Shown here piece by piece: positions 32,781 through 50,779 of a stretch of DNA of 64,000 bases. The DNA comes from Candidatus Latescibacterota bacterium. GTDB lineage: Bacteria; Latescibacterota; UBA2968; UBA8231. The notes under the pieces were generated by a model. The model made no database searches. It was not told where the DNA came from and worked only from the letters and a program-made list of their open reading frames with translations. The DNA lies in the NCBI GenBank assembly GCA_965217585.1, contig OZ244561.1, positions 2,496,001 to 2,560,000 on the forward strand. Reading direction: 5' to 3'. Within the stretch, counting starts at the first letter, position 1, and each line of letters starts with the position of its first letter. A program made the translations under genes and the position numbers.

Positions 32781-33890
32781 ATGATCCATACCGCACAAGC
32801 ACTTACCGAACTCGTCGAGCACGCCCTAGACTGCGAGCGCGTTGCCCTAGACACTGAATTTGTTTGGAACCGCACCTATTATCCCAAGTTAGGCGTGATC
32901 CAATTGGCCCTCGCCGGCGACGACTGCCACCTAATTGACCCGGTGGCGATTGCGGATCTCTCGCCCCTTGGTGCCCTGTTAGAGCACGCGGAGGTCGAAC
33001 TGATTCTCCACGATGCCCAACAGGACCTGGCTATTCTGCGCCGGGTCACGGGTGCCTTTCCGCGCAACGTCTTCGACACCCGCTGCGCGGCCGGGCTTGC
33101 CAATATGAGTTCGACCTCTTCGCTGGCTGATCTCTTGGAGCAGACCCTCGGCGTAGTCCTCGACAAGACCGAGACGCTCACCAACTGGGTCCGCCGCCCT
33201 CTCTCCGAGGACCAGCTAGCTTATGCCATTGAGGACGTGCGCTATCTGCACGAGGCATGCAATGTGTTGCGGGCGCGCGTCGAGAAAATTGGTCGCAACA
33301 CTTGGCTGGCAGAGGAGATGACCGCGTACGACGATCCGCGGCTATACGAGGAGCGAGACCCACGCGAGCAATTCACTCGGGTCAAGGGCGCGGGCCAAGC
33401 TTCTGCGCGCGAGCTGGCCATTCTCCGCGAATTGGCCGCTTGGCGCGAAGAGGAAGCCCAGCGCTGCAACCGACCGCGCAATCACGTACTGACGGACGAA
33501 ACTCTCGTGTTACTAGCTCGGCGCAAGCCCCAATCGCCGGAGGAACTAGGCCGACTCCATGCATTCGGCAATCGCCGCTATGACCGCTACGTCCTCGAGC
33601 AGGTTCACCGCGGCTTGGCCGTCCCCAACGAGGAGTGCCCACCCCGGCCGCGCCGGCCGCACCTCGATAAGGAGGTCGTCGAGCGCAAACTCGCCCAATC
33701 CATGGATTACTTGCGCCGGCAAAGCAACGCGGCGCAGATTGACGCGCCTTTTGTCGCGGCCCGCGCCGAAGTGCGCAACCTAGTCCTCGACTCGGTCGCT
33801 GCCACGCCCGAGGATCATCGCCTCCTGCGCGGGTGGCGGCGCGATTTTATTGGCGAAGCCCTATACGGCATCGCTACTTGCCCTGAGTGA
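32781..33890 (+). CDS. rnd: Ribonuclease D
   Basis: ALDTEF..RTYYP.L..IQ, HDAQQD, W.RRPLS..QL.YA..DV, HRDC domain, GWRR. Confidence 0.92.
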   Translation: MIHTAQALTELVEHALDCERVALDTEFVWNRTYYPKLGVIQLALAGDDCHLIDPVAIADLSPLGALLEHAEVELILHDAQQDLAILRRVTGAFPRNVFDTRCAAGLANMSSTSSLADLLEQTLGVVLDKTETLTNWVRRPLSEDQLAYAIEDVRYLHEACNVLRARVEKIGRNTWLAEEMTAYDDPRLYEERDPREQFTRVKGAGQASARELAILRELAAWREEEAQRCNRPRNHVLTDETLVLLARRKPQSPEELGRLHAFGNRRYDRYVLEQVHRGLAVPNEECPPRPRRPHLDKEVVERKLAQSMDYLRRQSNAAQIDAPFVAARAEVRNLVLDSVAATPEDHRLLRGWRRDFIGEALYGIATCPE

Positions 33891-36800
33891 AGCGTGCCTC
33901 ATAACTGGCCCTGAGCCGGGCTGAGCCTCGCCAGATCAGACATAGCGGCACGACCAACACCACCAGTACCGATGAAGATATTAGCCCCCCTGATGTGCCC
34001 AAGGCCAAGGTGTACCAGATGTCGCCCCGGTCTCCTTGCAACAACAACGGCAAAAACCCGGCGATCGTCGTCAGAGTGGTAATGAAAATGGGGCGCAACC
34101 GCTGGAAAGCAGCGCGAGTAACCGCGTCCTGCGGAGCCGCCGGCTGTGCTCGTAACGCTCTAGAAATATGGTGTACCAGCAAGATGGAATTGTTCACGGA
34201 GATACCCATCAAAAGCAGCAGCGAAGCATATCCACCTTGGTCGAAAGAAGCGCCCGACAAGTAAAACCCGGCACCCACCCCGATCAGGGCTAGCGGCAGG
34301 GCGAGCAACACCAGCAACGGCCAAGTCCAAGACTCAAAGAGCGCCGCCGCGATCATCCAGACTAAGACGACCGAGAGCAGCACGATGAGGGCCAGTTCTC
34401 GTTCTTCCTCTTCACTGAAAACCGACATCATATAACCCCGCGACAAACTGTATCCATAGGGTATGGGCGTGTGGTCCATTATATCCTGTACCACCATTTC
34501 TGCGTAAGAGAAATCGCCCAAGATCGTAAACCCGACCTCTTTGATGTAACGCTGATTTTCTCGCTTGATCTCAGGCCGTACATAGTGCTTTTGCAAGCGG
34601 CTGACATCGCCGATGCGGGCACCCCCTTCCGCCAATAAGGCTTGATTCAAGCGGCGCAGATCGGTTCGGCGGGCCGTTGTATCGGCAACAGCCGCCATAT
34701 ACTCCCGACGGTCCACGTACAGCTTGGCGACCGGGGCCCCACCGTCGAGCCGGGTTTGTATCTGATCGGCGACCGCAGCGTGGTCAAGGCCCAGCGGGAC
34801 GGTCTTGGCGTGGTCAATCTGGGCTAGCACCTCGTAACGAGGTGGCCCGTAAGCACGGTCGATGTGAATATCCTTGATCCGCCGTGATCGCCGATCCTGC
34901 AATCGCTCGGCGATTCCGGTGGCGATTTGGCCTACCTGCCTAAAATTGTAGCCCTTTACTTCCAGTCGCCTCGACGCGCTCAAGCCACCTCCTAGCCCTC
35001 TCCCCTCCGGTTCCAGATCCTGGCCCCATATCCGAAAGCCGACGCCGCCGATGTTGTGCCCGTAAGCCGCTAGATTGTCGTATAGCACGTAGGGAACATT
35101 CGACTTTTTGTACTCTTCCTTTAGCAAAACCTGCACAAGCCCGTACCGGCCGTAGGTCTGGGTGACGATCCCCCTGATGTACGGGGAAAACAAGAGTAGC
35201 TGCTTTTCAATGCCCTGCAACAGTCCGTCCAGTCGGCTGATGTGTGCGTTGTGCGGCATTTCGAGGAAGACGATCAGCGAAAACCCTTCGGTTACTTCTC
35301 GCAAGAGGTGTCTATACGATGACTCTTCTATCCGGTGGCCAACGTCGCGGAACAGAAAGTAGGTCGCGCCGCCCAACACACTAAAGAGCGCCGGTTTAAC
35401 CACGCCCAGTAGCGGGTTGCCCCACACCGTGTTGTAGAGCTGTGTCCCCCCATCGTAGAGCCGTCCCCAAGCGGAGTCTGATCCCTCTTCCTTTTCAGGC
35501 ACCAACACTTTTCTGCCGAATGTATCTAGCGCCGCGAGACTATCCCTATCGGCGAGCCATTGTTGGTACTCTTGACGTGTCTCAATTGCACCTGTGAGCC
35601 TCCCTTTTTCCACCAACCCCCGGCGTGTTCCCACTTCGTCTGGCAAGAGCCATAGTGGGACGCCTACCATCCACGCGACCAGCCCTAGCACCCACCCTTT
35701 GCGGCGGACGCAAAAGGTGAGAACTCTGCGGTACGCCCCATAGAGGCGGCGGTCTGCTGCTGGGGATGGCGCAACCCGGCGGACGCTTAGATAAAAAAAC
35801 GTCGGAATCAGGGTGAGGGCGAAGACCAAGGCTAGGATGAGCGTCAGGCCTAACGACACTACAAAGGGCGTGAAATGTCGCTGCAATTGGGCAGAGAGGA
35901 AAAACACCGGCAGAAAAGCCCCTAAAGTGGTTAGGTTGGAAACCACTAAGGGGTACATCACCTCGCGCAGACCCTCGGCTACGGCTTCTTTTAGATCCCC
36001 TTCCGGACCGCAGTCCTCGGCGCGGCGGTGGATGTAGTCATAGACGACGATGGCGTTGTCTATGATAATCCCAAACCCTATGGTAAAACCGGCCAGGGTA
36101 ATTAGGTTCAGTGGTAGGCCGAAGAGGAAAAACAGGCTGAACGCCCCCAGCACAGAAAGCGCGACCGAGCACAGGATCAACACTGGGGTCTGGAGCCGTT
36201 TGAATACCCCGATCAGCACTAGCGCGATACACAGGACAGAGAAGGCGGACCGGCGCAGCAAGAAGTGGAGGTCGTCCTCGATGCGAGCGCCCTCGTCGTT
36301 GAGCACGACAATCTCGACCTCCTCCGGCAACTGCGCGGCGAGCGCGGCGAGCTTGGTCCGCACCCGCCGAGAGGTGCCGATCATGTCGCTACCGGCCATC
36401 TTTTCGACCTGCACGGCAATACCGTTGCGCCCGTTGATCCGGTACAGGACCTGCGGATCGCTAGACTGGTAGCGGACGGTCGCTACATCCCCCAAGTAAA
36501 GGACGCGCCCGCCCGCCATCCGCTTGAGGGGAATCCGCCTGAGCGCGTCGAGATCCTCAACGCCTCCTTGTAGCTGGATGCGGCTCAGGGTGCTGTGCGC
36601 CTTGGTCGTCCCCAAGGAGCGGGTCTGCATACCCTGCGCCGCCAACGCCGCTCGCAGTGTCCGCAGGTCAATCCCCCAGCGCTGGGCCAAGGCGTGGTCC
36701 AACTCGATGAGGATGCCTTGCTCTCTCCCTCCTTGCACCGAGACCTCTCTGACCCCGGGTACGGACAGCAGCGGGAGCCGCACCTTGTCTTCTACGAACG

Positions 36801-37272
36801 TGCGGAGCGCGGCAGGGTCCTCGCGCCCGAGCACCTGAAAAAGGATAAAGCCGCGCAAATCGCGCAGCAGATCCGGCTCAAAGCGCCGCACCACTGGATA
36901 GGAGACGCCTGGGGGCCGCTGGCGGAAGAACGAGTGGATCTTCTCGTTGAGTTCCAATTCGGCTAGCTGCAAATCGGCCGTGCGGGCAAATTCGGCAGTG
37001 ATATAGGCACTCCCGACCGAGGTGACAGAGCGCAATTCGACCACATCTGGCACTCCCCGCACCAGCGATTCCAACGGGGCCGTGAGCCGCGATTCTATCA
37101 CGACGGCCGAGGCTCCCGGCCAAGAAAGGTTCACCGTCAGCTGGGGTGCGTCGGCTTCTTCCGTAGTGTCGATGGGTATGAGGGGAAAGCAGAGCAGGCC
37201 CATGGCCAGCACAGCCGCACTGGCAACCCCTATGGCCACGGGCCGGTCCAACAATTTGTCGGCTATCCCCAC
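33874..37272 (-). CDS. RND efflux permease (AcrB/AcrD/AcrF family) with a periplasmic insertion
   Basis: GTG 37272; GIIIDNAIVV, SNLTTLGAFLP, RLRPIFITTLTT. Confidence 0.9.
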   Translation of the reverse strand: MGIADKLLDRPVAIGVASAAVLAMGLLCFPLIPIDTTEEADAPQLTVNLSWPGASAVVIESRLTAPLESLVRGVPDVVELRSVTSVGSAYITAEFARTADLQLAELELNEKIHSFFRQRPPGVSYPVVRRFEPDLLRDLRGFILFQVLGREDPAALRTFVEDKVRLPLLSVPGVREVSVQGGREQGILIELDHALAQRWGIDLRTLRAALAAQGMQTRSLGTTKAHSTLSRIQLQGGVEDLDALRRIPLKRMAGGRVLYLGDVATVRYQSSDPQVLYRINGRNGIAVQVEKMAGSDMIGTSRRVRTKLAALAAQLPEEVEIVVLNDEGARIEDDLHFLLRRSAFSVLCIALVLIGVFKRLQTPVLILCSVALSVLGAFSLFFLFGLPLNLITLAGFTIGFGIIIDNAIVVYDYIHRRAEDCGPEGDLKEAVAEGLREVMYPLVVSNLTTLGAFLPVFFLSAQLQRHFTPFVVSLGLTLILALVFALTLIPTFFYLSVRRVAPSPAADRRLYGAYRRVLTFCVRRKGWVLGLVAWMVGVPLWLLPDEVGTRRGLVEKGRLTGAIETRQEYQQWLADRDSLAALDTFGRKVLVPEKEEGSDSAWGRLYDGGTQLYNTVWGNPLLGVVKPALFSVLGGATYFLFRDVGHRIEESSYRHLLREVTEGFSLIVFLEMPHNAHISRLDGLLQGIEKQLLLFSPYIRGIVTQTYGRYGLVQVLLKEEYKKSNVPYVLYDNLAAYGHNIGGVGFRIWGQDLEPEGRGLGGGLSASRRLEVKGYNFRQVGQIATGIAERLQDRRSRRIKDIHIDRAYGPPRYEVLAQIDHAKTVPLGLDHAAVADQIQTRLDGGAPVAKLYVDRREYMAAVADTTARRTDLRRLNQALLAEGGARIGDVSRLQKHYVRPEIKRENQRYIKEVGFTILGDFSYAEMVVQDIMDHTPIPYGYSLSRGYMMSVFSEEEERELALIVLLSVVLVWMIAAALFESWTWPLLVLLALPLALIGVGAGFYLSGASFDQGGYASLLLLMGISVNNSILLVHHISRALRAQPAAPQDAVTRAAFQRLRPIFITTLTTIAGFLPLLLQGDRGDIWYTLALGTSGGLISSSVLVVLVVPLCLIWRGSARLRASYEARFTQGK

Positions 37273-37274
37273 CG

Positions 37275-40200
37275 TCAGGCTTTCTCTCGTATCACCACCG
37301 AGTAGAGGATGGGAATGACGATCAGAGTTAGCAGGGTCGCCAAGGATAGACCACCGACGATGGCCCAAGCCAGCGGGTGCCGCAACTCGGCCCCACTGCC
37401 GCTGGACAAGGCCATGGGCAGGAGGCCGCAAACCGTGGTCAGGGTGGTCATGCAAATGGGCCGGAAGCGCTTTTGTCCGGCTCCCACAATAGCGCCCCGC
37501 AGGTCGCCGTCAGAGCGGAAGCGCGTGTGGATGAAATCGACCTTGACAATCGAGTCGTTCACCACAATACCCACCAGCACAATACACCCCAACAAGGACA
37601 TGATGTTCAGGGTATTATTAGTCGCCCACAACGCGAAAACCACCCCCATGGACGCCAGCGGCACAGCCGCGACGATCACAAAGGGGACGACCAGCGATTC
37701 AAACTGGGCGGCGAGGATGCAGTACACCAAGATCACCGCCAAGGCGACCAGCACGTACAGGTTCCGGTACTGCTCCTGCATCTGTGCGTAGTGGGTTCCG
37801 ATGGCTACCCAATGCCCACTGGGAATAGTTAGGCCATCCAACAGCGCGGCAAGTTTGGTTTGGGCTTCGGCGCGATCAATGCCTTGAAGAGTAGCGGTTA
37901 TCATCGCAGTGCGGGTTTGGTCCTCGCGGTGGATTTCCTCGTAGCCTTGGCTGGGTTTTAGTCGGATGAGTTGGGAAAGGGGAACGTGGATGGTGCGGTC
38001 TTTTCTCCGCACCGGGTACTGTAGGCTCAAGATGCGCTGTGGGTCGAGCTCGTCGGAGTGCCCGGCGCGCACCCGGATGTCGATGCGATCGACAAAATCG
38101 ACGAATTGGGTTGGGGTGCTGCCTTGTACCTGTCGGTTGATGAAATCGGTGAGTTGTTCGATGCGAATGCCATAGTTTATGGCGGCATCGCGGTCGATGA
38201 CGACCTCAAAGGTCCGCTTGCCGGTTCGCAGGTCGGAAACCACGTGCGCAAAGCCGGCGGTCTGCCGCATAAAGTCTGCGATCTGTTCGCTCAGAGCCGC
38301 CAAGGTCTCTAGCTGAGGCCCGACGATCTTCACGTCGAATAGGGTCTGCTGTCTCTGAAACAACTGTTCAAAGACCGACTCTGGCTGGGCGAGCGTCAGA
38401 GTTAGCTCGCCAAAGGCCGCGAAGGCCGCTTCCAATGTTCGCTCCACCTCCGCGCTCGGCACGTCCTCGGCGAGCTCAAGGTCGAGGACCGCCTTATTCA
38501 GCCCGGGCCGATACCCCCCGGCTACGCTCTCGCGGACGATGCCCACCGATGCCAACACCGAGCGGACGCCGGCCTCTTGCCGCAGGCGGTGCTCCAGCCG
38601 GGCAACCGCCGCCGAGGTGGCCGACAAACTCGCTTCTGTAGGCAACTCCACGTGCAAGACGAGATGCCCTCGATCCACATCCGGCATAAGCTCCCGATCC
38701 AGTCGCACGGCCAGCCAGCCACTCAAGGCTAGTAACACAAACGCGGCCACCATCACCGTATAGCGGTGGCGCAGGGCACCGGCCAAGACCCGTTCATAGA
38801 GGGCAAAGAACGCGCCGAACACCTGCTGAAAAAGGTCAATGGTCCAAACCAACGGGGCCGCCAGCCGGTAGAGGGCACGGACCGGACGTCTCTTCCAGCT
38901 TCTAGAAGAGAGCATGGGCAGCAGGGTAATGGACACCAGCAGGGAAGCAGCCAGCGCCAAAGAGATGGTGACGGCCTGCTGGTAAAAGAGCGCCCCGGCC
39001 ATTCCTTTGACGTACACTAAGGGCAAAAACACGGCCATGGTGGTCAGGGTCGAGGCGGTAATGGCCAGCCCTACTTCCTCGGTGCCGCGCACGGCCGCTT
39101 CGCCGGGGGCATGGCCCAACTCGCGGTGGCGGTAGATGTTTTCCAGCACCACAATCGAGTTATCGACCAAAATCCCAATGCCCAGCGCCAGCCCGCCCAG
39201 CGACACGATGTTAAAGTGGATATCGAGGAAGTACATGCAGATGAAGGTGGTGACGATGGAAACAGGTATGGATAGGCCGACGATGAGGGGATTTTTGAAG
39301 TCTCTGAGGAAGTAGATGAGGGTGATAAAGGCGAACACGCCCCCTAGGTAGAGCGCCTCGACCACACTGTCGATGGACGCTTGGATAAACTCGGCTTGGT
39401 CAAAGACCGGTCGCACCGCAAAGTCGGGATAGTCCAGCGAGAACTGGTACAGATCGCCGTACACCTTCTTCGAGGTCTCTACCGTGTTGGCCCCGGCCTC
39501 CTTAAAAAGATACAAGGTGATGACCTCGTGGCCGTTCAAACGGGTGTACCCGCTCCGTTCCGCGTAGCCTTCCTCAATGCGAGCGACCTCCTCCAAGCGA
39601 ATCTGTTTAGGCTCCTGTCGCACGGGAATCCGGCCGATCTCCGCAAGGTTGGTAAACTCCGCCTGTATGCGCAGCGGAAACTGAGCCACGCCGTCGCGGA
39701 TGGTGCCGCCCGAATGCGTAACATTGAACTGCGCGAGACTCTGTTCCACCGCGGCAAAGCCAATGTTGTAGCGCCGACATTTCTCCACATCGAGGGATAC
39801 TTGGATTTCGCGGTCGAGACCGCCGGCCACCTGCACGTAGGCCACGCCGTCAATCTGTTCGAGGCGGCGTTTGATGACGGATTGGGCGACCTCCTTTAAC
39901 TCCATCAGGGCTTGATGGTAATCGCGCGTGGACTGGGGGTGCTCAATCCGGTCGCCGGTGACGATTAGGGTCATTACGGGTGCTGAGGAAGGGTCAAAGC
40001 GCAAGATGGTGGGGCGTCCGGCGGCTTGCGGCAGTCCGGCCCGGTCGAGACTGCTGCGGGCCTCAATGAAGCCCAAGTCCATGTCGCTGCCCCAGCGGAA
40101 CTCGACCTCGACCAACGAGAGGCCATCCTGCGAAACCGACCGCAGGCGGCGCACACTGCTGACCGAGCTGAGGGCGGCTTCAAGGGGACGAGTGACGTAT

Positions 40201-40382
40201 TCTTCTACATCGCGGGCGTTCAGGCCGAGACAGTCCGTGCGGACCACGAGCCGGGGAACGTCAATGTCGGGTAGGAAGTCCACGCTCAGGCGGAAGAGCG
40301 AATAGACCCCCAAAAGGAGCGCGGCCAGAAAGCAGACGGTGGTCGCCACGGGCCGCTGGACGGCAAAGCGGACGAGGCGCAC
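37275..40382 (-). CDS. RND efflux permease (AcrB/AcrD/AcrF family)
   Basis: RPVAT, GILVDNSIVVLENI, STLTTMAVFLP, RFRPICMTTLTT. Confidence 0.93.
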   Translation of the reverse strand: MRLVRFAVQRPVATTVCFLAALLLGVYSLFRLSVDFLPDIDVPRLVVRTDCLGLNARDVEEYVTRPLEAALSSVSSVRRLRSVSQDGLSLVEVEFRWGSDMDLGFIEARSSLDRAGLPQAAGRPTILRFDPSSAPVMTLIVTGDRIEHPQSTRDYHQALMELKEVAQSVIKRRLEQIDGVAYVQVAGGLDREIQVSLDVEKCRRYNIGFAAVEQSLAQFNVTHSGGTIRDGVAQFPLRIQAEFTNLAEIGRIPVRQEPKQIRLEEVARIEEGYAERSGYTRLNGHEVITLYLFKEAGANTVETSKKVYGDLYQFSLDYPDFAVRPVFDQAEFIQASIDSVVEALYLGGVFAFITLIYFLRDFKNPLIVGLSIPVSIVTTFICMYFLDIHFNIVSLGGLALGIGILVDNSIVVLENIYRHRELGHAPGEAAVRGTEEVGLAITASTLTTMAVFLPLVYVKGMAGALFYQQAVTISLALAASLLVSITLLPMLSSRSWKRRPVRALYRLAAPLVWTIDLFQQVFGAFFALYERVLAGALRHRYTVMVAAFVLLALSGWLAVRLDRELMPDVDRGHLVLHVELPTEASLSATSAAVARLEHRLRQEAGVRSVLASVGIVRESVAGGYRPGLNKAVLDLELAEDVPSAEVERTLEAAFAAFGELTLTLAQPESVFEQLFQRQQTLFDVKIVGPQLETLAALSEQIADFMRQTAGFAHVVSDLRTGKRTFEVVIDRDAAINYGIRIEQLTDFINRQVQGSTPTQFVDFVDRIDIRVRAGHSDELDPQRILSLQYPVRRKDRTIHVPLSQLIRLKPSQGYEEIHREDQTRTAMITATLQGIDRAEAQTKLAALLDGLTIPSGHWVAIGTHYAQMQEQYRNLYVLVALAVILVYCILAAQFESLVVPFVIVAAVPLASMGVVFALWATNNTLNIMSLLGCIVLVGIVVNDSIVKVDFIHTRFRSDGDLRGAIVGAGQKRFRPICMTTLTTVCGLLPMALSSGSGAELRHPLAWAIVGGLSLATLLTLIVIPILYSVVIREKA

Positions 40383-40391
40383 GTGGCGGCC

Positions 40392-41552
40392 CTAGCGCTG
40401 AACGACCACGACCTTGGCGTCGTGGGCCAGATTGAAATGTCCGGATACAATCAGTTCCTCGCCTTCGCTAAGCCCTTCTTCGATCTCAATAAAGTCGTCG
40501 TTTTCGAGGCCGGTCCGCACATAGCGCCACTTGGCCTGACCAGCTTCATGCACGAAGACCAGCGCGCGGTCATCGCGGATGAGCATGGCGTCGCGCGGGA
40601 TGAGCAGCCGCTGTTTAAAAACTCTGGTTTCCACGGCGACTTGGGCGAACATGCCCGGCTTGATGCGGTGGTCGGGATTGTCGATTTCAATGTGAATACT
40701 ACAGGTCCCGCTTTCGGCATCAACTACCGGGCTGATGGCCTTGATGATGCCAGCAACCTGCTCGCCGGGAAAGGCGTGGGGCCGGATGGAGACTTGGGCA
40801 CCGAGTTGCACCAGCCGTAATTCGCTCTCCAAAATGGGGACATCGAGCCGCAGCGGGTCCAGCGCCACCAACCGCATCAAGGTGCGGCCTTGCGCGACCA
40901 TGCCACCCGGGCTGACCTCCACCTGGGTGATGTAGGCGTCAAACGGTGCCTTGATGACCGTGTGTTCTAAGTCTAACTCAGCCCTTCTCAACTCTAGCCG
41001 GTTACTGGTCAGCCCAGTCGTGCTGGCGATCCACTGCTTGGGCGAGTGATCGGTAAACAGGGCGAGGGCATCGCGGTCGTTTACTTCGGCGGTGTCGGCA
41101 ATGGCTTCGACGTCGTCTTGCAGGAGACGGCCCCGCTTCATCTGGCTGCTCGACAGGGCAATCGCGGCATATTCGCGCAACGAGCGAGTCATCTGGTCCT
41201 TGGCCTGTAGATAGGCAAGGTGGTAGGATTCGGCATCGATTTGCAGAATGGTGTCGCCTTGGCTGACGAAGTGGCCTTCCTCGGCATGCAGGCTGCTCAC
41301 CGGCCCCGACACTTGGGCGGTGAGGTCGGTCTCAACCCAAGCCTTAAAGACACCACTGGCCAAAATCTGCTGCACGAAGTCGCGCTTCTGCACCGTTTGC
41401 GTGGCCACGGGCGTGGCTGGCGGTTCAAGTTCGGGCAATGTGGTAAGGGATGGACTGTCGTCAGTTGAGGATGGAGCGGATTCCCCCACAATCGCATACG
41501 CTAATGCACCCAGTCCGAACAACGTTAGGGCGATGTAGAGGATTCGTTTCAT
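40392..41552 (-). CDS. RND periplasmic adaptor (membrane fusion protein)
   Basis: N-terminal TM; VSG.V......EG.FV.QG lipoyl half, IKAPFD, KPGMFA. Confidence 0.92.
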   Translation of the reverse strand: MKRILYIALTLFGLGALAYAIVGESAPSSTDDSPSLTTLPELEPPATPVATQTVQKRDFVQQILASGVFKAWVETDLTAQVSGPVSSLHAEEGHFVSQGDTILQIDAESYHLAYLQAKDQMTRSLREYAAIALSSSQMKRGRLLQDDVEAIADTAEVNDRDALALFTDHSPKQWIASTTGLTSNRLELRRAELDLEHTVIKAPFDAYITQVEVSPGGMVAQGRTLMRLVALDPLRLDVPILESELRLVQLGAQVSIRPHAFPGEQVAGIIKAISPVVDAESGTCSIHIEIDNPDHRIKPGMFAQVAVETRVFKQRLLIPRDAMLIRDDRALVFVHEAGQAKWRYVRTGLENDDFIEIEEGLSEGEELIVSGHFNLAHDAKVVVVQR

Positions 41553-41628: not shown

Positions 41629-42633
41629 TTATCCACCCGTCACCTCGGCCAAAGCCGCCAAGGCAGTCCGCTCCCGTCCTGCGAGGGCACACAGCCGCGA
41701 CTGAATGCGCGGCAGTACCCTTGTTGCATCCTTGACCGTCCCTTTGAAACACAAATTCTTCACCACAAACCAGCCCTGGGAAATGGACTCAAATTCCCGG
41801 CTGAGGTCACCTAGACGCGGAAGTTGGCAGACCTGAGCAGCATGGTGAAGAAAGCGGCCATGACCTTCGCGGAGCAAGGCGATCTCTAGAAGCAACTCAG
41901 CGCACCGTCCCAAGCGCGCTTTGAGGAACGGCTTTTCGTACTCCGCCCATGCTCCGGCATCCTCGGCTAGTTGCTCAACGCCCTTCAGTCCCACGGCGAG
42001 ATTCGCTTGATCGCTAGACGCGGACATACTGCGCAGGTTGCGTTGCAGAAGGGCGCGGGCGGCTTCGGGCCGCAGGGTAAGCCGTCTCCTCGGCACCTCC
42101 GGCCAGAACCAGTTGTATCGGTCTTGACTCTCTCCGGGAATCGCGCTCACATCCCAACTGGCAAGGAACAATTCGAGCGGGATACTCCGCGCTGAAGGCT
42201 GCCACGGCGAGGGATCGATGAGGTGAACGGTAGCGGCCTCGTCGTCGTACCCAGCGGCGATATACTGGTGGTCTGAATGGCGCAGACGGGGATAGAGGCC
42301 GGCTTGGGCCAGCGGGAACACGTCCAAACTAATGGCCACCGGGGTATCCGCGTCTATTAGCTTTTTCACTTCATCCCACGCGCTTTGCCCATCGTTCGCG
42401 TTGCGGTTGAACAGCGCAATGCCAAAGGCTTTGAGCGTATCGGGCAGGGGCACGACCCGTCCTTGGATAGTGAACCGTTCGCCTTCCTCTCGGCAATAGA
42501 TAAAGTCCCAATGGGAAAAACAGGGCACCGATGGTTCGCATTCATAGAAGCGCAACAGGCTATCCAACACCACATAGACGCAGTTGTAGCGTCGGTGAGT
42601 GCAAAAAGGGATGCCATCAATGTGTTTTTTCAT
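41629..42633 (-). CDS. BtrH N-terminal/DUF4872-like papain-fold (C39-like) protein
   Basis: YNCV near the N-terminus; LIDADTPVAISLD; H...AGYD......LIDP (Cys-His-Asp); helical C-terminal domain. Confidence 0.7.
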   Translation of the reverse strand: MKKHIDGIPFCTHRRYNCVYVVLDSLLRFYECEPSVPCFSHWDFIYCREEGERFTIQGRVVPLPDTLKAFGIALFNRNANDGQSAWDEVKKLIDADTPVAISLDVFPLAQAGLYPRLRHSDHQYIAAGYDDEAATVHLIDPSPWQPSARSIPLELFLASWDVSAIPGESQDRYNWFWPEVPRRRLTLRPEAARALLQRNLRSMSASSDQANLAVGLKGVEQLAEDAGAWAEYEKPFLKARLGRCAELLLEIALLREGHGRFLHHAAQVCQLPRLGDLSREFESISQGWFVVKNLCFKGTVKDATRVLPRIQSRLCALAGRERTALAALAEVTGG

Positions 42634-42650: not shown

Positions 42651-43916
42651 CAGGGCAATCGCATTATAACTGTCCATGTGCCAATAGGTTCGCCAAATAT
42701 TTGTGGTCCCACCCGGCCTTGAGCCGTTTGGTTTGCATGCCGGCTTTGGTCGTTTTGTCTTGCTGGAGTAGATTGAGCGCGATGTGGCGTATAACGGCCA
42801 TATTTTCGGGGCCATGCCCCCGGCGTATGCGGGACTGATCTTCGTTGAAGACGACATCGAGGATCCAGTGTAATGAATTTTCAATGGCCCAAGGACCGCG
42901 CACGGCCTGTCCCAATCGTTGGGCGTTGTTGTCCAGGGTGGAGATATAGTAGCGTCGTTCGACCGAAACGCTATCGCCGCGGTGCCGGGTGGCCTCGACC
43001 ATACCGAACAGGCGTAAGCCCGGCCAGTGAGCATGATCGGCAAAAGCCTCAATCTGGTTGGTGGTCCAGTACTGCCGCGTTTCTCGACGCCCGTGGTTTT
43101 CGTCCTGAGTAAACCAATAATCTACGGTGGGGTCGGCGTGGAGTTTGGAGTCGGAACGGTCAAAGAGTTGTTGAAGATGGGCGTGGAGTTTGGGTTGATT
43201 CTCCTTGACGGCCAGCACGTAGTCGGCCTCTTGTTCGACGACCTGTTCGGCCGTGCTTTTATGACACCCCAAGGCATCGGGGGTGACCAGGCAGCCTTTG
43301 AGGTCTAAAACACGTAATAATTCGGGGATGAGCGCAATTTCTTCGAGGGCTTCTTCACCATGGAATTGCCCCAAGACCAGCCGATTTTTTACCGCCCAAG
43401 CATGCACCCTGTGGATGGCGGCTTGGCCCGAGTCTGTATCGTAGGAGCGGCGCAGTGTCTTGCCATCCAGCGGCACGATCTCGCCCTCGTCGGCCAACAG
43501 GGGCGTCAGCGATTGCACCCAAGCGGTAAAACAGTCTTGGAAATGCCAAGGCGAAATACGGGCCAACACACGACCGAAGGTATCATGCGAGGGGATGCCG
43601 TTCGGCACGGCTAGAAAGGTCTTAAGCCAGTCGGCTTTAGCCCGGCCAAATTCGGCGATCGCCACCCAGTTGTCGGCCCCACAAATGGAGCCGCACACCG
43701 CAATCATGAGAATATCAATCAAGCGATGCGCCCGACAACGCTCCATACGCGGGTCGGGGATATCGGCCAAATAATCCAGCAACCCCGAAGACGATGAGGA
43801 CATGAAGAAACACTCCAGGCAAGAGGGAAATGGGAGGACATGAACCTAAGCTCCATAGAACGGCCAAAAGTAACATAACCGCATGGTAAAAATCAACTTA
43901 TAATGCGATTGCCCTG
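42651..43916 (-). mobile_element. ISAs1-family insertion sequence
   Basis: Perfect 19-bp IR cagggcaatcgcattataa (42651-69; 43898-916); no target duplication. Confidence 0.92.
42664..43803 (-). CDS. ISAs1-family transposase
   Basis: DPR, GIPSHDTFGRV, DGKTLR, VKENQ, HGR.E.R, W.IENSLHW.LDV; several motif substitutions (e.g. RGPW for RGHW). Confidence 0.9.
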   Translation of the reverse strand: MSSSSSGLLDYLADIPDPRMERCRAHRLIDILMIAVCGSICGADNWVAIAEFGRAKADWLKTFLAVPNGIPSHDTFGRVLARISPWHFQDCFTAWVQSLTPLLADEGEIVPLDGKTLRRSYDTDSGQAAIHRVHAWAVKNRLVLGQFHGEEALEEIALIPELLRVLDLKGCLVTPDALGCHKSTAEQVVEQEADYVLAVKENQPKLHAHLQQLFDRSDSKLHADPTVDYWFTQDENHGRRETRQYWTTNQIEAFADHAHWPGLRLFGMVEATRHRGDSVSVERRYYISTLDNNAQRLGQAVRGPWAIENSLHWILDVVFNEDQSRIRRGHGPENMAVIRHIALNLLQQDKTTKAGMQTKRLKAGWDHKYLANLLAHGQL

Positions 43917-44159
43917 CTAGTCTAGCTTATAGAAGGGCGCACATTACTCTCTAAAGGGGTCATCAGATATGTGATGACCTTCTACTACCTCTAAAAGCGA
44001 CGCGTCTGTTAATTGGGCGAGCGGTGAATCCTCGAACCCCTCCGTGCTTATCCCGAGGGGAGGGAAATGTCTGAACACTAGTTTGGTAAAAAAGATAACG
44101 GAAAACTGTTCCTTTCCATATATGGGATAATGGCATTGGAGAATAGTATTACGCTCGTT

Positions 44160-45404
44160 CTGATTCCCTGACACTTTTGAAAAAAGGGCTGCTGCCCATA
44201 GATTACGGCCCTCTTTTAACCGACCCCGATCAAAGGAGTGCCTTATGAGCAGCAGCGAACAGGTATATACTCGATTGATGACCACCTTGCAAGCGATAGT
44301 GCCGGTATCGAATCGAAAACAGTTGGCTAACTGGGCTTGGATCGCGGTGGCTATGTTCCAAGCTAAGTCGATTGCCTTGAGCCAGATCGCTGTTTTTCTG
44401 CCGGGCTCGGCCAAAGCCGAGTCGCGGGTGATGCGGTTGCGCCGTTGGCTGTCGAATCGGCAGTGTTCGGTGTGGGCACTGTATCGCCCGCTGCTTATGC
44501 ATGTGTTGGCTCCGTTTAAGAACCGAGCGGTTGATGTGATCTTGGATGGGACGTTGGTGTTCGGCAATCGCATGCAGATTTTTCGCCTGTCGTTGGTACA
44601 TAAGAATCGAGCCATTCCTCTGGTATGGAAGGTCATCCCCGGTAAAGGCAACACGCGCGTGTCGCAACTAGAAGGGATGGTGACCCAAGCCGCTGAAGTG
44701 CTTGACGGGTTGGTTGCGTCGGTGACCTTGCTGGCCGATCGGGGCTTCCGCGATCATCAGTGGGCGGCGTTATGTGTGCAACTCAACTGGCATTACGTCC
44801 TTCGCCTACCGGCCAACACGTGGGTCAACAGGCCCGATGGGACCGCCGGGCGCATCGATCAGTTGGCTATACCCAAAGGCCAGCGCCGCTTTTATCCACA
44901 GATTACACTCACGAAAGAGGCCACGCTGACCTGTTCGCTATCGGTGGGCTGGACCCAACCGACGACCAAGCAACCCGCCGAGTGGATCGCCGTCATCTCC
45001 GATCAACCCGCCGGCCCCGCCCGCCGGCGTGCCTATAGCAAGCGGATGCACATTGAGCAGAGTTTCAAAGAAGATAAATCCGGCGGCTTCGATCTGGATC
45101 ATACCCGCTTGCTCAATCCCCAACGCCTTGAACGCCTGCTGCTGGCGGTGGCGTTGGCCACCTTATGGGCGCACGAGATAGGCGAATAGGTCCTCCGGGG
45201 AGGCCCCGCCCGCCGACAGACTATCGATGCGGGCACCCGGCGCGAACTGAGTGTGTTTCAATTGGGCCTCCGATGGCTCAAACGGTGTATCGCCCTCCAA
45301 CTCCAGCGCTTGCCAGCGTTCAAAGGACGGTTGGCACCCACGGGAATAAAAACTGTTGTTAAAAATAAGACGACCAGCAGAAAGTAAAAGTGTCAGGGAA
45401 TCAG
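44160..45404 (+). mobile_element. IS4-family insertion sequence (1245 bp)
   Basis: Perfect 19-bp IR ctgattccctgacactttt; 9-bp TSD acgctcgtt at 44151-59 and 45405-13. Confidence 0.93.
44245..45387 (+). pseudogene. IS4-family transposase with an in-frame TAG at 45187
   Basis: LDGT, ADRGF, YSKRMHIEQSFK (YREK); frame continues past TAG through RELSVFQLGLRWL to TAA 45387. Confidence 0.85.
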
Positions 45405-45954
45405 ACGCTCGTTAACAAGCAGGATTAGGGGAGTCTGTTTGAGAAATTCATCTAGTGAAGTGTTGTCTTCTTTTATTATCCCAAACTGATAATCTAACCG
45501 AAAGGCGCGTTTGAACTGCCAAAGCCTTTCCAGAGGAATATCCTTGGAAAGGGCGTATATAGGAAATTCATTGGGATCTGTCAGATTGTCACGTATATGC
45601 TGTAAACCATTCAACACCAACTCAAGACAAGGCTGACACGATTTCGGGTCAAATAATAGCACTAAACCACCCTTCTTCTTGGAAAAATCAGTATATACTG
45701 TATCACCACGATCTGTCTGTATAGAGACTACAGGGAAGTGTTGTCCAATCTTCTTAGTCGAGTTGTAAATGTTGAGCAAAAATGTCTTATTTGTCTGATT
45801 GTTTGCAAGATCAAATAAATAGAGCTTGCCGATCCAAGCCACGGATACCGTTATGCCGATAAGTAATAATACGCTCGTTATACCCAATAACTGGGCAGAG
45901 GTAAGACGTTTCATAGATTGTGTCTCTGTTGTACTCTACATTTACCTCAATAAC

Positions 45955-47252
45955 TTGAATTCGACAGGTAGGTTGATATTTAGGCTCGAACAGGCATCGG
46001 AGTCTCCCTATTTTGGGATAGCTTGATTCACCGCCATGGATCATCTACCCCAGGGAAACTCCGATGCTGAACCTGACTCGCTTGCCTGTGAACCTTCGTT
46101 ATTTTTTGCGTGGGACTCAACATTTTTTTCGTCATCGCCATCATCTGGTGTTCTGTTGGAGTATGACGCTGTTGTTAATCTATCAAGATAAAGCGACGCT
46201 GTGTGGTTTAGCCCGCTTGGGGCCTAACCATATAGCGGAATGGCACTTACGTCGCTTGCTGAGTGCGACCTACTGGAGTTGGCGGTTGCTGTTGGGGTAC
46301 TTGGTTGATGCGGTGATCGCCGGGCTGCCACCGGCGGAAGACGGTCGGGTGTTGGTGATCGTCGACGGGACCTACAAAGCCAAGGTGGCCAAGAAACATC
46401 CGTTGGTGCGCAAAGCCCGCGCCGATGGCTATAGTCCCTTTCTGTGGGGGTTTGAAGTGATCCTGGTCATGCTGCAGTGGGGCAATTATCGAATCCCTAT
46501 CGATTTCGAGTTGGTTCGGCGTAAAGAAGACCCGGCCTATCAGAAGCCCAATGTGTTGTTTCGTCAGATGCTGACCGCCTTGGTACCACCGGCTTGGGCC
46601 CAGCAAGTGATCGTGGTCGCCGATGCCGGGTTTCCCGCTAAAGAAACGCTGCACTTGATCCAGCAACGAGGCTTCTTTTTCGTCATGAGTCTGCCCCGCA
46701 CCTGGAAGTTTGAAGACGGCCATACGCTCAAAGATTGGGTCCATCATACGCGCCATACCTGTTATCGAAAAATCTGGTTTCGTCCGCACGGCTCCCGTCG
46801 GCGGGTCTATTGGGTCTACCGCGGTCGTAAACGCCTGCGACACATCGGAGATGTCACGTTGGTCTTGAGCAAGAAACGGCGCAACGATTCGCCGAAACAA
46901 ACCAAAATCCTGGTGACCAATCTACCGGACGTGACCGCAGGCCAACTCGTCGTGTTGTATACCCGCCGCTGGCACGTGGAACTGCTCATCAAAGAATTGA
47001 AAGGGGCCACCGGATTAGGACAAGCCCAGGTGACCAAGCAGACCCAACGAGTCGAACGCTCCGTCGCGTTGTCCGTTATGGCCTACTTGGTTTTGATCCA
47101 TTTTCGGCAGCGGGATATTCCCCACCAAGGACCGTGGAGTGCGTTTACCCTCAAGCGAAATTTTGCTTGGGAGTGTGCGCGAAAACAGATTGAACATAAC
47201 CAAAAACGAACCTACACAAAGGCCGCCTAAGACAACTACCTGTCGAATTCAA
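45955..47252 (+). mobile_element. IS4/IS701-like insertion sequence
   Basis: 17-bp IR ttgaattcgacaggtag (45955-71; 47236-52); direct repeat ctcaataa at 45946-53 and 47253-60. Confidence 0.88.
46064..47230 (+). CDS. DDE transposase (IS4/IS701-like)
   Basis: VDGT, ADAGF, LVTN, YTRRWHVELLIKELK. Confidence 0.9.
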   Translation: MLNLTRLPVNLRYFLRGTQHFFRHRHHLVFCWSMTLLLIYQDKATLCGLARLGPNHIAEWHLRRLLSATYWSWRLLLGYLVDAVIAGLPPAEDGRVLVIVDGTYKAKVAKKHPLVRKARADGYSPFLWGFEVILVMLQWGNYRIPIDFELVRRKEDPAYQKPNVLFRQMLTALVPPAWAQQVIVVADAGFPAKETLHLIQQRGFFFVMSLPRTWKFEDGHTLKDWVHHTRHTCYRKIWFRPHGSRRRVYWVYRGRKRLRHIGDVTLVLSKKRRNDSPKQTKILVTNLPDVTAGQLVVLYTRRWHVELLIKELKGATGLGQAQVTKQTQRVERSVALSVMAYLVLIHFRQRDIPHQGPWSAFTLKRNFAWECARKQIEHNQKRTYTKAA

Positions 47253-47262
47253 CTCAATAAGG

Positions 47263-47300
47263 TTCAGCGGACTCGATTAAAGAAAATCGAGTCCGCTGAA
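47263..47300 (-). other. Perfect 16-bp stem-loop downstream of the peptide gene
   Basis: ttcagcggactcgatt-aaagaa-aatcgagtccgctgaa; no 3' U-tract in either direction. Confidence 0.8.
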
Positions 47301-47360: not shown

Positions 47361-47585
47361 TCAGTCGCAGTCTACTTTGGTCCACGATCCGCTGTCCCGA
47401 TCCCCTGGAGTGCAATTATGCTTGTTCCCAGAGAAACACTCCCAATTCCAAGCATACCATATTGTAAGACATCCGTTTTCGTAGTCAGAATCAAAATCAT
47501 CTCCTCCTACCCAACGACCTTCGGGACTGTAGGTACAAATGAGATCCGTACGCCTGTACGGGGTCTTCTTGGTAAGATTAACCAT
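47361..47585 (-). CDS. Putative double-glycine-leader Cys/Trp-rich peptide precursor (74 aa)
   Basis: GAAAGGA RBS; 28-aa leader ending VGG; 46-aa core with 4 Cys and 4 Trp; co-oriented with the cluster. Confidence 0.65.
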   Translation of the reverse strand: MVNLTKKTPYRRTDLICTYSPEGRWVGGDDFDSDYENGCLTIWYAWNWECFSGNKHNCTPGDRDSGSWTKVDCD

Positions 47586-47635
47586 AACGCATTCCTTTCG
47601 TTTGAGGGATTGAGGTGTGTTCCCTGTCTTATAAT

Positions 47636-48889
47636 TTATCTTTTAACGAACAGCTCATATATGTCCACTGTGCCATTGGACTTCTCCGCTGCTTCTACTG
47701 GTGGTGGCCTATAAACATAAATCTGGCTCTTCCAAGATGCTATTCTTCCGCCTATCCCGCTTGCTTTAGCTTTAACTACAGTTCCCTGAGAATCTTTTTT
47801 GATACCTTCAAGAGATTGATATGCAGCACCATTGAGCGAGTATGCCTCAATCAATTCCGACGAATCCGAAGTCACCAAATCATAAAGCGTCCATTCATTT
47901 GGTGACTGTGGTCTCTCACGAGAAGTGTGTGAGATTAATAGGTAACGATCATCTATCAGGACCATGCTAGTCGCCCGATTGATTCCACTCATTATTAGGG
48001 AGAAATCGCCCCGATCTGTTGATCCACAGTCTAGGCCGTGGTACTCCCTCGATAAGAATTTGAAATCTGGCTGCTGCTTCTCAAGGGTGAAGACGTTATA
48101 ACTAGGCACAAGAGCACCGAATTGCCGCAGGAGATCACCGGTGGAGGCATCGATCTCTTTTACCATGTAGTCATTGGCCTCCAGATAATACAGACGATTT
48201 TGCATAGTATTATAGCGTAGTTGAGCAGGGTTACGTAGGTAGCATGAAATGATCTGATCTGTCTTACTAGAGAGAGGTATGGTATATTCTACTGCCCTAT
48301 TGAGGCCAGTAATTTTCTGTATCTGTATGATAGATCCACCATGTTTATTCTCCATAACGATCAGTGCATCATCTCGGTTGATCAACAAGCCTCTACATCC
48401 AACCCAGCTCATCTTATCATCAAGGTACTGACCTTGTCGATTATAATGCAATAATTGGCCGTATATAGGATCCATGATATAGACATCTCCCTTGGAATCC
48501 ATAGCCATCGCCTCAGCACCCCCATATTCCCCAGGCCCCTTCCCAGTGCGTCCGAAAGACCGGATATATTTGCCATCGTTCAGGCTGAACTCGTGCGCCC
48601 TACGAGATATCCGATCTGTAAGGAGTAAGGAACTATCAGGAGTAATGCCCATCCAGCGTATCCTGCCAATACCCGGAACTGCCTTATCAAATACCAATTC
48701 GACTGTACGCTTGAGTTCAAGGCCCATCTCCCCGGCATATTCTACAGGCACTTTGGGAATACTCGACTCGTCTAGCTGCTCCTGCGCCGCAACAGACTTG
48801 ACCCCGCCATAGCCTGCTATCACCCACGTAATGAGCATGGCCCTGAAGAAGATCAAGACGTTATTAAAGGTGAAAGTACTGGAGATCAT
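47636..48889 (-). CDS. Exported 6-bladed beta-propeller (TolB-like/NHL) protein (alternative start 49006)
   Basis: Hydrophobic N-terminus ending VAA-QEQ; FGRTGKGPGEY and DSKGDVYIMD propeller motifs; low GC. Confidence 0.8.
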   Translation of the reverse strand: MISSTFTFNNVLIFFRAMLITWVIAGYGGVKSVAAQEQLDESSIPKVPVEYAGEMGLELKRTVELVFDKAVPGIGRIRWMGITPDSSLLLTDRISRRAHEFSLNDGKYIRSFGRTGKGPGEYGGAEAMAMDSKGDVYIMDPIYGQLLHYNRQGQYLDDKMSWVGCRGLLINRDDALIVMENKHGGSIIQIQKITGLNRAVEYTIPLSSKTDQIISCYLRNPAQLRYNTMQNRLYYLEANDYMVKEIDASTGDLLRQFGALVPSYNVFTLEKQQPDFKFLSREYHGLDCGSTDRGDFSLIMSGINRATSMVLIDDRYLLISHTSRERPQSPNEWTLYDLVTSDSSELIEAYSLNGAAYQSLEGIKKDSQGTVVKAKASGIGGRIASWKSQIYVYRPPPVEAAEKSNGTVDIYELFVKR

Positions 48890-49061
48890 GAACCGACTCT
48901 TTCTCAATGTTACAGGTGCTCGCGGAATCCAAACCGCTATCGGCAGGAATACCCTTCGCAGATTAAAGATAGCCACCGATTCGGTGTGCTTATATAGAGA
49001 GAACATCTTATTTCCTCCTTCAGAAAAGCTGATTTTGCGACCCAAGCGTCCCGGAGCCTCC

Positions 49062-49706
49062 CTACTCCAGCGACACAATTCCTTCTCTGATCGCGTATTT
49101 GGTCAACTCAGCCACCCCGTTCATGCCGAGCTTCTTCATGAGATTCTGGCGATGATTGCCCACAGTTTTCTCGCTCACTACGAGTTGATCGGCTATTTGC
49201 GGGGTCGTTTTTCCCTCGGCGATAAGCTGCAGCACCTCTCGCTCGCGGGATGTCAGGAGGGGCGAGGCGGCACCATCGGCGAGGCGTTGCGCGTAATCGG
49301 CGATGAGAGGGTCAATCAATTGCGGGCTCACGTACTTGCGGCCGGCCTGTACCTCCCGGATCGCTTCCACCACCTCACGGGCCGCCGCCTCTTTCAGCAC
49401 ATAGCCCAAAGCCCCCACCTGCAACATGGCGGCCACAAAGCGCTGGTCCGAGCGCGACGACAGCGCCACCACCTTCACGCTCGGCTCCCTATCCCGTATC
49501 TGCCGAGTCGCCTCAATGCCATTCAAGTCGGGCAGGCCAATATCCATGACCACAATGTGGGGTAGGTGCTTGAAGACCAAGGCGACGGCTGTACGGCCGG
49601 CCCCGGCCTCGGCGACTACCTCAATATCGCTTTCTTTCTCACACAGCGAACACACCCCTTGGCGCGTAACTTCGTGATCGTCCACAAGCAAGACCCGCGT
49701 ACTCAT
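49062..49706 (-). CDS. NarL/FixJ-family response regulator (REC plus LuxR HTH)
   Basis: LVDDH, MDIGLP..NG, GYVLK, LTSREREVLQLIAEG..T..IA..L..S.KTV..HR.NLM.KL. Confidence 0.95.
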   Translation of the reverse strand: MSTRVLLVDDHEVTRQGVCSLCEKESDIEVVAEAGAGRTAVALVFKHLPHIVVMDIGLPDLNGIEATRQIRDREPSVKVVALSSRSDQRFVAAMLQVGALGYVLKEAAAREVVEAIREVQAGRKYVSPQLIDPLIADYAQRLADGAASPLLTSREREVLQLIAEGKTTPQIADQLVVSEKTVGNHRQNLMKKLGMNGVAELTKYAIREGIVSLE

Positions 49707-50095: not shown

Positions 50096-50317
50096 ATGAA
50101 TGAGTTTATCGTTGTAGATCCAGAGATTTGTTCGGGGAAGCCTATAGTTTGCGGTACGCGGATCATGGTAAAAAATATCTTGGGAATGGTGGCAGGCGGA
50201 TATGCGGTTGACCAGATTGTCGAAGCCTATCCCGAACTGACTCAGGAGATGGTGCAAGCCGCTTTGCAATATGCAGCGGCAGTCATAGATGAGGAACAAG
50301 TGATCGCACGTGCATGA
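50096..50317 (+). CDS. DUF433 family antitoxin (VapB45-like)
   Basis: IVVDPEICSGKP...GTRI.V..IL......YPEL. Confidence 0.92.
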   Translation: MNEFIVVDPEICSGKPIVCGTRIMVKNILGMVAGGYAVDQIVEAYPELTQEMVQAALQYAAAVIDEEQVIARA

Positions 50318-50687: not shown

Positions 50688-50779
50688 GTAGCCCCGCGCT
50701 CTATACGCTTCGGAGGTAGGCTATCTTCCCCTTATGATCGACCTGACCGGCCAACCACCTCAACAGGAGACTCGCGGCC

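Follow-up and report, generated by a model that had tools for sequence, protein, structure and literature searches.

A peptide gene with a widely shared leader, a paired propeller gene and a putative protease-acyltransferase maturation kit, decaying in a Candidatus Latescibacterota genome

The DNA analysed here (the window) is a 64,000-nucleotide stretch of contig OZ244561.1 from the genome of an uncultured marine Candidatus Latescibacterota bacterium, referred to below as G000; relatives are numbered in the same way (G022, G014, G004, G013, G131 and so on) and fetched loci carry L numbers, L013 being the locus of G022. On the minus strand of the window lies a gene for a 74-aa precursor peptide (47361..47585), with a ribosome-binding site, AAAGGA (47593..47598), 7 nt before its ATG. 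The product divides into a 19-aa basic leader ending ICTY (47529..47585), which fits the family motif [VIL]-x-[AT]-Y and in which an S8 protease is predicted to cut next to Y19, and a 55-aa acidic core of net charge -7 (47364..47528) that carries W25, C39, C50, C58 and C73 and is predicted to form a three-stranded sheet with nested disulfides. A 16-bp hairpin 3′ of the gene (47263..47300, minus strand) likely stabilises or ends the precursor mRNA; it is kept in G000, G022 and G014 with three compensatory pairs, a fourth row (G013) aligning poorly, and was not called by the terminator scan.

The neighbouring genes are on the same strand. Upstream lie a DUF5128 six-bladed beta-propeller with a hydrophobic N-terminal segment (47636..49006; Pfam E=3e-8), which is a candidate cognate immunity or binding partner, and a NarL-family response regulator (49062..49706). 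A PAS kinase partner of this regulator occurs whole in G014 and as a fragment in G022, but was not seen in the G000 window; upstream of the regulator, where relatives have the PAS histidine kinase or its remnant, the window has a DUF433/DUF5615 pair and a Uma2 gene (50096-51271). Downstream, beyond a region occupied by insertion sequences, are a gene for a 334-aa papain-fold protein with BtrH_N and DUF4872 domains (41629..42633; catalytic triad C18/H122/D140), a putative carrier-protein-dependent transacylase, followed by an RND membrane-fusion protein (MFP; 40392..41552) and two RND permeases (37275..40382 and 33874..37455, the latter being open reading frame limits with the true start probably near 37275).

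The preliminary description of this locus had proposed a precursor-like peptide gene, small enough to be overlooked by annotation and equipped with a good ribosome-binding site. The translation that it quoted is exact, its ribosome-binding site is the AAAGGA motif given above, with sites at the equivalent position upstream of the peptide genes of relatives, and neither Pfam nor NCBIfam names a family for the product. Four database homologues share 65-88% identity with it; a search of 1.84 billion representatives with a peptide profile gave 35 matches, of which 34 have the size of a peptide; of the 132 class genomes, 14 contain the family, at 19 places in all; and G022 and G014, in which the insertion sequences are absent, have an unbroken frame. 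Taken together these observations confirm that the open reading frame encodes a real peptide gene. The Cys and Trp content alone would not have sufficed, since 213 of the 8137 Met-started frames of 60-90 aa in G000 hold at least four Cys and at least five Trp and the composition is thus not beyond chance. The named loci of related clusters are mostly titled Ca. Latescibacterota. Three of four RNA libraries (X7, X10 and X11, all of one study) have contigs from related strains that extend over the peptide gene, although contigs cannot prove transcription; the mean depth in X7 was 262 and 131 for the peptide contigs and 26 for the propeller contig, values that cannot be used to rank genes.

In G022, G014 and G004 the peptide gene is part of an operon with the order response regulator, propeller, peptide, redoxin, ABC transporter, rhodanese, S8::DUF1611 (a subtilase fused to a DUF1611 domain), ACP, 207-aa protein, BtrH-like protein, MFP, RND and RND; G014 adds a GNAT gene, and G004 has two propeller-peptide pairs. 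In G131, a member of another family that was found by the peptide profile alone, the ACP, S8::DUF1611, redoxin, propeller, ABC, rhodanese and MauE genes are present but reshuffled. The 207-aa protein (L013:15987-16610 in G022) has no Pfam or NCBIfam match and is usually encoded just before the Cys-containing type of BtrH-like gene; it is a candidate partner subunit.

It is clear from the comparison with these operons that the copy in G000 is damaged. An ISAs1 element (42651..43916, minus strand) stands in place of a 5158-bp block of G022 (blastn against L013) that holds the genes for the ABC exporter, rhodanese, S8::DUF1611, ACP and 207-aa protein; correspondingly, the TIGR04066 domain had no match in G000 (94.6% complete, one contig), as against matches in five of five relatives, which had been chosen for having the cluster. 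An IS4-family element (44151..45404, plus strand, 9-bp target duplication) splits the gene for the membrane-anchored, CxxC redoxin-like protein into a 5′ part (45405..45914, minus; 96% identical to the intact G022 copy) and a 3′ part (43944..44159, minus; 100% identical to G022 residues 168-238). A third element, of the IS701/IS4 superfamily and with ten copies in the genome, lies between the peptide gene, after its hairpin, and the redoxin gene (45946..47252, plus strand, 8-bp target duplication). In the public DNA contigs X1 and X5, pieces of the window end at insertion sequence borders; X4 and X6, both from one sample, lack the latter two insertions, with joints 44150-45405 and 45945-47253, and have ISAs1 next to position 44038, a different end of the deletion that is marked by only 28 letters on its short side. 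The best-matching public DNA samples may include the source sample. Given these borders and the alternative deletion end, the decay is likely a real process that still continues, and not an artefact of assembly. Since the maturation genes have been replaced and the redoxin gene is split, the G000 copy of the peptide likely cannot mature and would represent a decaying allele.

The enzymes of the intact operons were compared across a wider set of loci. Among 55 full-length S8 loci, an ABC transporter was found in 50, a BtrH-like gene in 40 and an ACP motif in 35. The S8 catalytic triad is conserved (a regular expression for it matched 51 of 71 proteins), the DUF1611 P-loop is present in 71 of 71, and the N-termini of the S8 and BtrH proteins are not hydrophobic. 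For the S8 domain the nearest model is QhpE, which scores 155 bits against a cut-off of 165; the C-terminal domain of the fusion spans TIGR04066 at 113-126 bits, under the cut-off of 200; the DUF1611 domain also matches the N-acetyltransferase DgcN weakly (E=1e-4). A structural model of the fusion (pLDDT 67) matched only subtilisins and the DUF1611 structural-genomics entries 2obn and 2g0t. The membrane-anchored redoxin keeps its CxxC in 15 of 15 cases, its relatives match AhpC-TSA/Redoxin, and some loci also have MauE, a protein with a role in disulfide formation. A profile of the BtrH-like protein finds AziU3/Azi29 at E=1e-9. A second, distant BtrH-like gene exists elsewhere in G000 (L009, G000:C1:1444860-1445849; 23% identity, E=3e-4), beside Yip1, efflux and ABC genes.

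An alignment of 46 peptides locates the conserved parts of the precursor. All 46 have M1, L4, Y19, W25, C50 and C58, and a basic residue (K or R) at position 6. At position 18, 37 peptides have A, 7 have T and 2 have G; the leader is conserved over 19-23 aa as M-x-x-L-x-K...[VIL]-x-[AT]-Y. As 30 of the rows were taken from the profile search, the invariance of W25, C50 and C58 is partly selected; W25 and C50 were already invariant in the 16 rows gathered by homology or gene context. An AlphaFold2 model from 16 sequences (pLDDT 76, pTM 0.49, with a low-confidence N-terminus) has strands at 25-36, 39-50 and 63-72, in agreement with the beta-rich core that had been suggested from the sequence of G000 alone.

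These data bear directly on where the leader ends. It had been suggested that cleavage follows WVGG at G28; in such a case a double-glycine leader would be removed by the C39 peptidase of a transporter to leave a 46-aa unmodified bacteriocin or autoinducer. The query and four close relatives do have the GG, the chain switches from basic to acidic along its length, and the BtrH-like protein has a papain/C39-like fold, all of which would suit such a scheme. But GG is present at that position in only 5 of 46 peptides, whereas W25 upstream of it is present in 46 of 46, and no double-glycine leader family was matched. Furthermore, a cut at G28 would split the first predicted strand and discard W25, and the 578-aa ABC transporter of the cluster consists of membrane and ATPase domains with no C39 peptidase domain. 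We therefore place the leader boundary at Y19 and regard the double-glycine scheme as very improbable; the exact bond next to Y19 is our inference. A further suggestion, that a stretch of the leader resembles the YxxPxL motif bound by RRE domains, is not supported, as Y10 varies across the alignment and no cluster gene scanned matched an RRE or PqqD family in Pfam, although the 207-aa protein has no family assignment at all.

The leader extends beyond this peptide family. When a filter for the motif plus a ribosome-binding site was run on 79 S8::DUF1611 loci (those kept of 135 confirmed), 44 distinct leader strings, including one double count and at least one that is probably false, were found in 41 of the 79, all on the strand of the S8 gene; the opposite strand gave none, and the same filter gave 10 matches in the 7.3-Mb genome. 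The cores behind these leaders are unrelated to one another: some are Cys mini-domains, others long acidic chains or hydrophobic stretches of Gly and Ala. With a scoring matrix trained on the leaders of these S8::DUF1611 loci alone, the annotated CLI_3235 precursor on a Clostridium pasteurianum plasmid scored 15.8 and a pair of precursors from a Bacillus mycoides plasmid cluster scored 19.3 and 23.2, these being the top three of 219 open reading frames in their loci. A score of at least 15.8 was reached by 2 of the 60,580 open reading frames of G000, the query among them. A C. tagluense precursor scored at background (-12.4), and the CLI_3235 precursor was missing from the matches listed at 8 bits by an HMM of the leader alone. 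Two leader-like frames elsewhere in G000 (C1:2879207 and 2881748) were dropped because they are antisense to ABC permease genes. From these sequence comparisons the K...xAY leader appears to be a tag shared more widely by S8::DUF1611 loci.

The preliminary description counted Cys at 11, 22, 30 and 45 and four Trp from its cut after G28, correctly for that numbering; in the full-length peptide these Cys are C39, C50, C58 and C73. Before that cut the peptide has one more Cys (C17) and one more Trp (W25). The description had proposed nested C11-C45 and C22-C30 disulfides, that is C39-C73 and C50-C58. C50 and C58 are present in all 46 peptides, and a Cys between W25 and C50 co-occurs with one after C58: both are present in 32 peptides, both absent in 10, only the upstream one is present in 4 and only the downstream one in none (Fisher p 2e-7, which overstates the case, since kin are not independent). 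The outer pair thus appears to be gained and lost together, and the nested disulfides are supported by this covariation. While GG is lacking in most homologues, the Cys pattern is kept. The core varies from 41 to 63 aa across the family; it is rich in Trp in the clade of the query, but not family-wide, as the 46 cores have 1-6 Trp each. Searches with the peptide itself gave no informative match in the ESM Atlas, and its model gave a best E of 0.27 with Foldseek on the PDB and a best Z of 3.8 with VIA-align; a three-stranded sheet is too generic for these results to show either novelty or kinship.

The query also contains a W-N-W motif (W46-N47-W48), the kind of sequence that a darobactin-like radical SAM enzyme would take as substrate, possibly with halogenation, and the BtrH gene weakly matches an NCBIfam model named DarH (E=2e-4). 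However, W46 is present in 16 of 46 peptides and N47 in 5, and no radical SAM family was found among the cluster genes scanned, so that a darobactin-like product is largely refuted and we give it almost no weight. A halogenase function for the BtrH-like gene was likewise rejected; the darobactin halogenase DarH is described as a 58-kDa FAD enzyme (PMC10493593), which the 334-aa papain-fold protein does not resemble.

The closest known system is that of CLI_3235 and SacP23 (precursor TIGR04065, CcpM TIGR04068, TIGR04066 and the ACP-related TIGR04069). Common to both are the short basic leader M-x-x-L-x-K...I-x-A-Y/F and, in one cluster, a subtilase, a TIGR04066-like domain, an ACP and an ABC exporter lacking a C39 domain. 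The I-x-A-Y form of the leader is present in the family, the query itself reading ICTY. TIGR04066, ACP-like and subtilase homologues are full-length but below cut-off in the relatives, and are deleted in G000. The clusters described here differ in several respects. Their S8 and TIGR04066-like domains form one fusion protein, their ACP has retained the serine motif, and their core is a beta mini-domain rather than a CxC-repeat; they also contain further components, namely RND pumps, a DUF5128 propeller, a CxxC redoxin and an enzyme of the BtrH type. The TIGR04065 HMM (cut-off 26 bits) matched 0 of 14 peptides and nothing over cut-off in G000 or five relatives (a positive control precursor scores 29.3), and no radical SAM family that could represent CcpM was found among the cluster genes scanned in G000, G022, G014 and G004. 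The locus is therefore not a member of the CLI_3235 system, though it is like it in leader and protease kit. A metagenome scan with a clostridial TIGR04066 protein found nothing, and two radical SAM loci of Enterococcus gave no useful information. SacP23 of Paenibacillus polymyxa is reported to come from a cluster with S8, TIGR04066 and ACP-like genes, to be antibacterial and to have a blocked N-terminus; its precursor has the same leader shape, ending IEAF, and its mass of 3404 Da (3.4 kDa) is below the 4.46 kDa of the predicted core, which shows that real processing can differ from the leader rule (PMC10731318).

The blocked N-terminus of SacP23, the BtrH triad and the ACP serine motif together favour a route in which the peptide is cut and then acylated. 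CtaG, a papain-fold relative, is described as a PCP-dependent transacylase with the triad C11/H128/D144 (PMC7183216). The BtrH-like protein resembles BtrH, CtaG and AziU3 in its BtrH_N and DUF4872 domains, its Cys-His-Asp triad and the adjacent carrier protein gene; the substrates of the known members are carrier-bound and either aminoglycoside or non-ribosomal, whereas the acceptor proposed here, by analogy, would be a ribosomal peptide. The NCBIfam model NF053550, "BtrH-related acyltransferase DarH", implies that a BtrH-type acyltransferase has been described, and may bear on novelty. Among N-acylated ribosomal peptides, lipoavitides, lipolanthines and selidamides are made with FabH-like or GNAT acyltransferases and their own synthases; an acylated ribosomal product and an ACP in the cluster would be the points of likeness, but no FAS/PKS or lanthipeptide enzyme is present in the clusters here.

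Alternatively, the same leader, protease, disulfides and export may operate with no acylation of the peptide at all, the ACP being a scaffold or leader-binding adaptor and the BtrH-like protein a second protease or an enzyme for another substrate. No acyl-ACP synthetase, fatty-acid gene or other source of acyl donor was seen among the clusters scanned, 15 of the 55 full-length S8 loci have no BtrH-like gene within 10 kb, and the BtrH_N match of the protein encoded at 41629..42633 overlaps Peptidase_C39_2. A second type of BtrH-like protein, found in 28 of the 55 loci, has no aligned Cys, and the clostridial ACP-like partners have no serine motif, so that the ACP/BtrH pair may not always be catalytic. 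Against this stand the serine motif in 42 of 44 ACPs, the full triad in the BtrH type found here, the carrier-bound substrates of its characterised relatives and the blocked N-terminus of SacP23. We judge a route that omits acylation to be unlikely, and acylation of the core, by analogy with these relatives, to be the probable step.

The relation between the peptide and the propeller gives a first indication of function. A propeller gene lies within 1.5 kb of the peptide gene at 17 of 19 places, most of which are training loci; at the three places outside the training set it is adjacent (G104), about 3 kb away (G131), or not seen on a 4-kb contig (G008). In G004 the propeller has been duplicated together with the peptide. 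For three propellers no peptide lies within 500 bases, and for a fourth (L059) a transposase stands between propeller and peptide. Compared at one and the same chromosomal site, G013 and G000 have BtrH, MFP and RND genes that are 91%, 92% and 94% identical, while the core, propeller and redoxin are 33%, 44% and 45% identical; from this contrast the peptide, propeller and redoxin have been exchanged as a unit. Pairwise identities of core and propeller across loci were not correlated (rho 0.10, p=0.44). Relative to G022, pN/pS is 0.86 for the peptide (17 nonsynonymous and 5 synonymous changes), 0.24 for the propeller and 0.14 for both BtrH and MFP (peptide against propeller, Fisher p=0.012). The propeller is thus under purifying selection and the peptide changes almost neutrally, yet every Cys and Trp of its core is kept; since pN/pS of the response regulator is also high (0.67), relaxed selection in a decaying locus may explain the peptide value. 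In other subtypes a CAAX-protease/TPR pair stands beside the peptide in the place of the propeller, and CAAX-type proteins have a role in immunity.

Such a module has the pattern expected of a toxin with its cognate immunity protein, and equally that of a ligand with its receptor. The mature peptide could accordingly be a secreted ligand that attaches to the propeller to act as a surface adhesin, a receptor or a metal-binding module, or a strain-specific signal that acts on host or kin. Its acidic, disulfide-locked beta core, the one-to-one pairing and co-duplication with the propeller, the two-component system upstream and the presence of similar DNA in a sponge and a marine metagenome (shares of about 0.2-0.26) are all consistent with this. 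Most membrane-active bacteriocins are not acidic, so the net charge of the core also counts against a bacteriocin. On the other hand, the upstream PAS-type kinase has no clear membrane segment (maximum hydropathy 0.97) and is therefore a poor fit for a sensor of peptides, the same slot is taken by CAAX-type proteins in other subtypes, and the one relative that has been tested, SacP23, is antibacterial. We consider it improbable that the peptide is a ligand rather than a toxin. The bacteriocin-like setting noted previously is borne out in that the gene lies beside an exporter and a candidate immunity gene. Class II double-glycine-leader bacteriocins share this setting, the small size and the disulfides, but differ in their conserved GG and C39 transporter and from the acidic core seen here. 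The Bacteroidetes NVEALA clusters also have a DUF5128 six-bladed propeller beside a small Cys peptide and a redoxin; no NVEALA family match was obtained here, and the leader is non-hydrophobic and accompanied by the S8/ACP/BtrH kit.

The interpretation that we prefer, and hold to be somewhat better than an even bet, is that a cytoplasmic subtilase cuts the leader next to Tyr19 and that the 55-aa core acquires an acyl cap at its new N-terminus as well as two nested disulfides and is exported. The product would probably be antibacterial, and the propeller its likely immunity partner; the G000 copy is likely unable to mature. The S8 domain, which has no signal sequence, would read the K/R...[VIL]xAY leader and cut it; the DUF1611 P-loop domain, perhaps with the 207-aa protein, would load the ACP with an acyl unit or activate the unit on it; from there the BtrH-type enzyme would transfer it, through Cys18, to the freed N-terminal amine. 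The core could then be carried over the inner membrane by the ABC transporter, acquire C50-C58 and C39-C73 through the membrane-anchored CxxC redoxin, with MauE where present, and leave the cell through the paired RND permeases, while the propeller would bind its cognate core. The open reading frame, leader family, operon, Cys co-occurrence, module exchange, deletion and insertions are direct observations; we infer the maturation steps from them, and the antibacterial action by analogy with SacP23.

A broader version, which we put forward tentatively and think rather less likely to be right than wrong, is that the K...xAY leader serves generally to route ribosomal peptides to a cut-and-cap maturase (S8::DUF1611, ACP and BtrH), which N-acylates unrelated cargoes, including disulfide mini-proteins, hydrophobic helical peptides and MNIO or radical SAM substrates. 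In marine Latescibacterota it would serve a polymorphic peptide-propeller toxin-immunity system with swappable modules, G000 being a non-producer that keeps the immunity gene. If true, this would be the first case of a papain-fold enzyme acylating ribosomal peptides in a carrier-protein-dependent way; it would give substrates and a testable chemistry to three uncharacterised types of protein, TIGR04066/DUF1611 in peptide clusters, BtrH-like enzymes linked to ribosomal peptides and DUF5128 propellers, would explain the blocked N-terminus of SacP23, and would point to a leader-directed protease-acyltransferase, tolerant of very different cores, as a useful tool for peptide lipidation. The peptide family, unnamed by the Pfam and NCBIfam scans, adds to the repertoire of an uncultured phylum whose biosynthetic richness in sponges has been noted (PMC9426513). 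Apart from SacP23 and in silico mentions, a literature search of mainly open-access main texts found no description of the radical-SAM-free, BtrH/ACP, propeller-paired form; the peptide family, leader test, disulfide covariation and module exchange are what the present analysis adds, while the CLI_3235/SacP23 kit was already known, if barely studied.

Several other subtypes of the kit were observed. Loci L073, L075-L077, L103, L125 and similar ones encode acidic precursors of 125-145 aa, each beside a CAAX-protease and TPR gene, with tandem repeats in L073 and L076, whereas L061, L064, L066 and L112 have hydrophobic, Gly/Ala-rich cores of 64-84 aa that end in Cys, accompany TlpA and Yip1 genes and resemble membrane-active bacteriocins. 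In L087, L089, L091 and L093 several short acidic peptides rich in Trp, Cys and His occur in tandem with rhodanese and MauE genes, and a role in metal binding is possible. The Bacillus mycoides plasmid locus (L131:7647-14557) represents an MNIO subtype, with ABC, ACP, two 44-aa precursors bearing the same type of leader, S8::DUF1611, a DUF692/MNIO enzyme with its partner and a BtrH-like gene. About ten tandem ABC-permease-like genes of some 800 aa lie at L128-L129 (G000:C1:2868000-2896000), similar genes being found beside leader peptides in G131 and in contig C246 of G008. Finally, on a Clostridium tagluense plasmid (L132:8666-9933), three peptide genes alternate with two ACP-related genes, next to an agr quorum-sensing locus.
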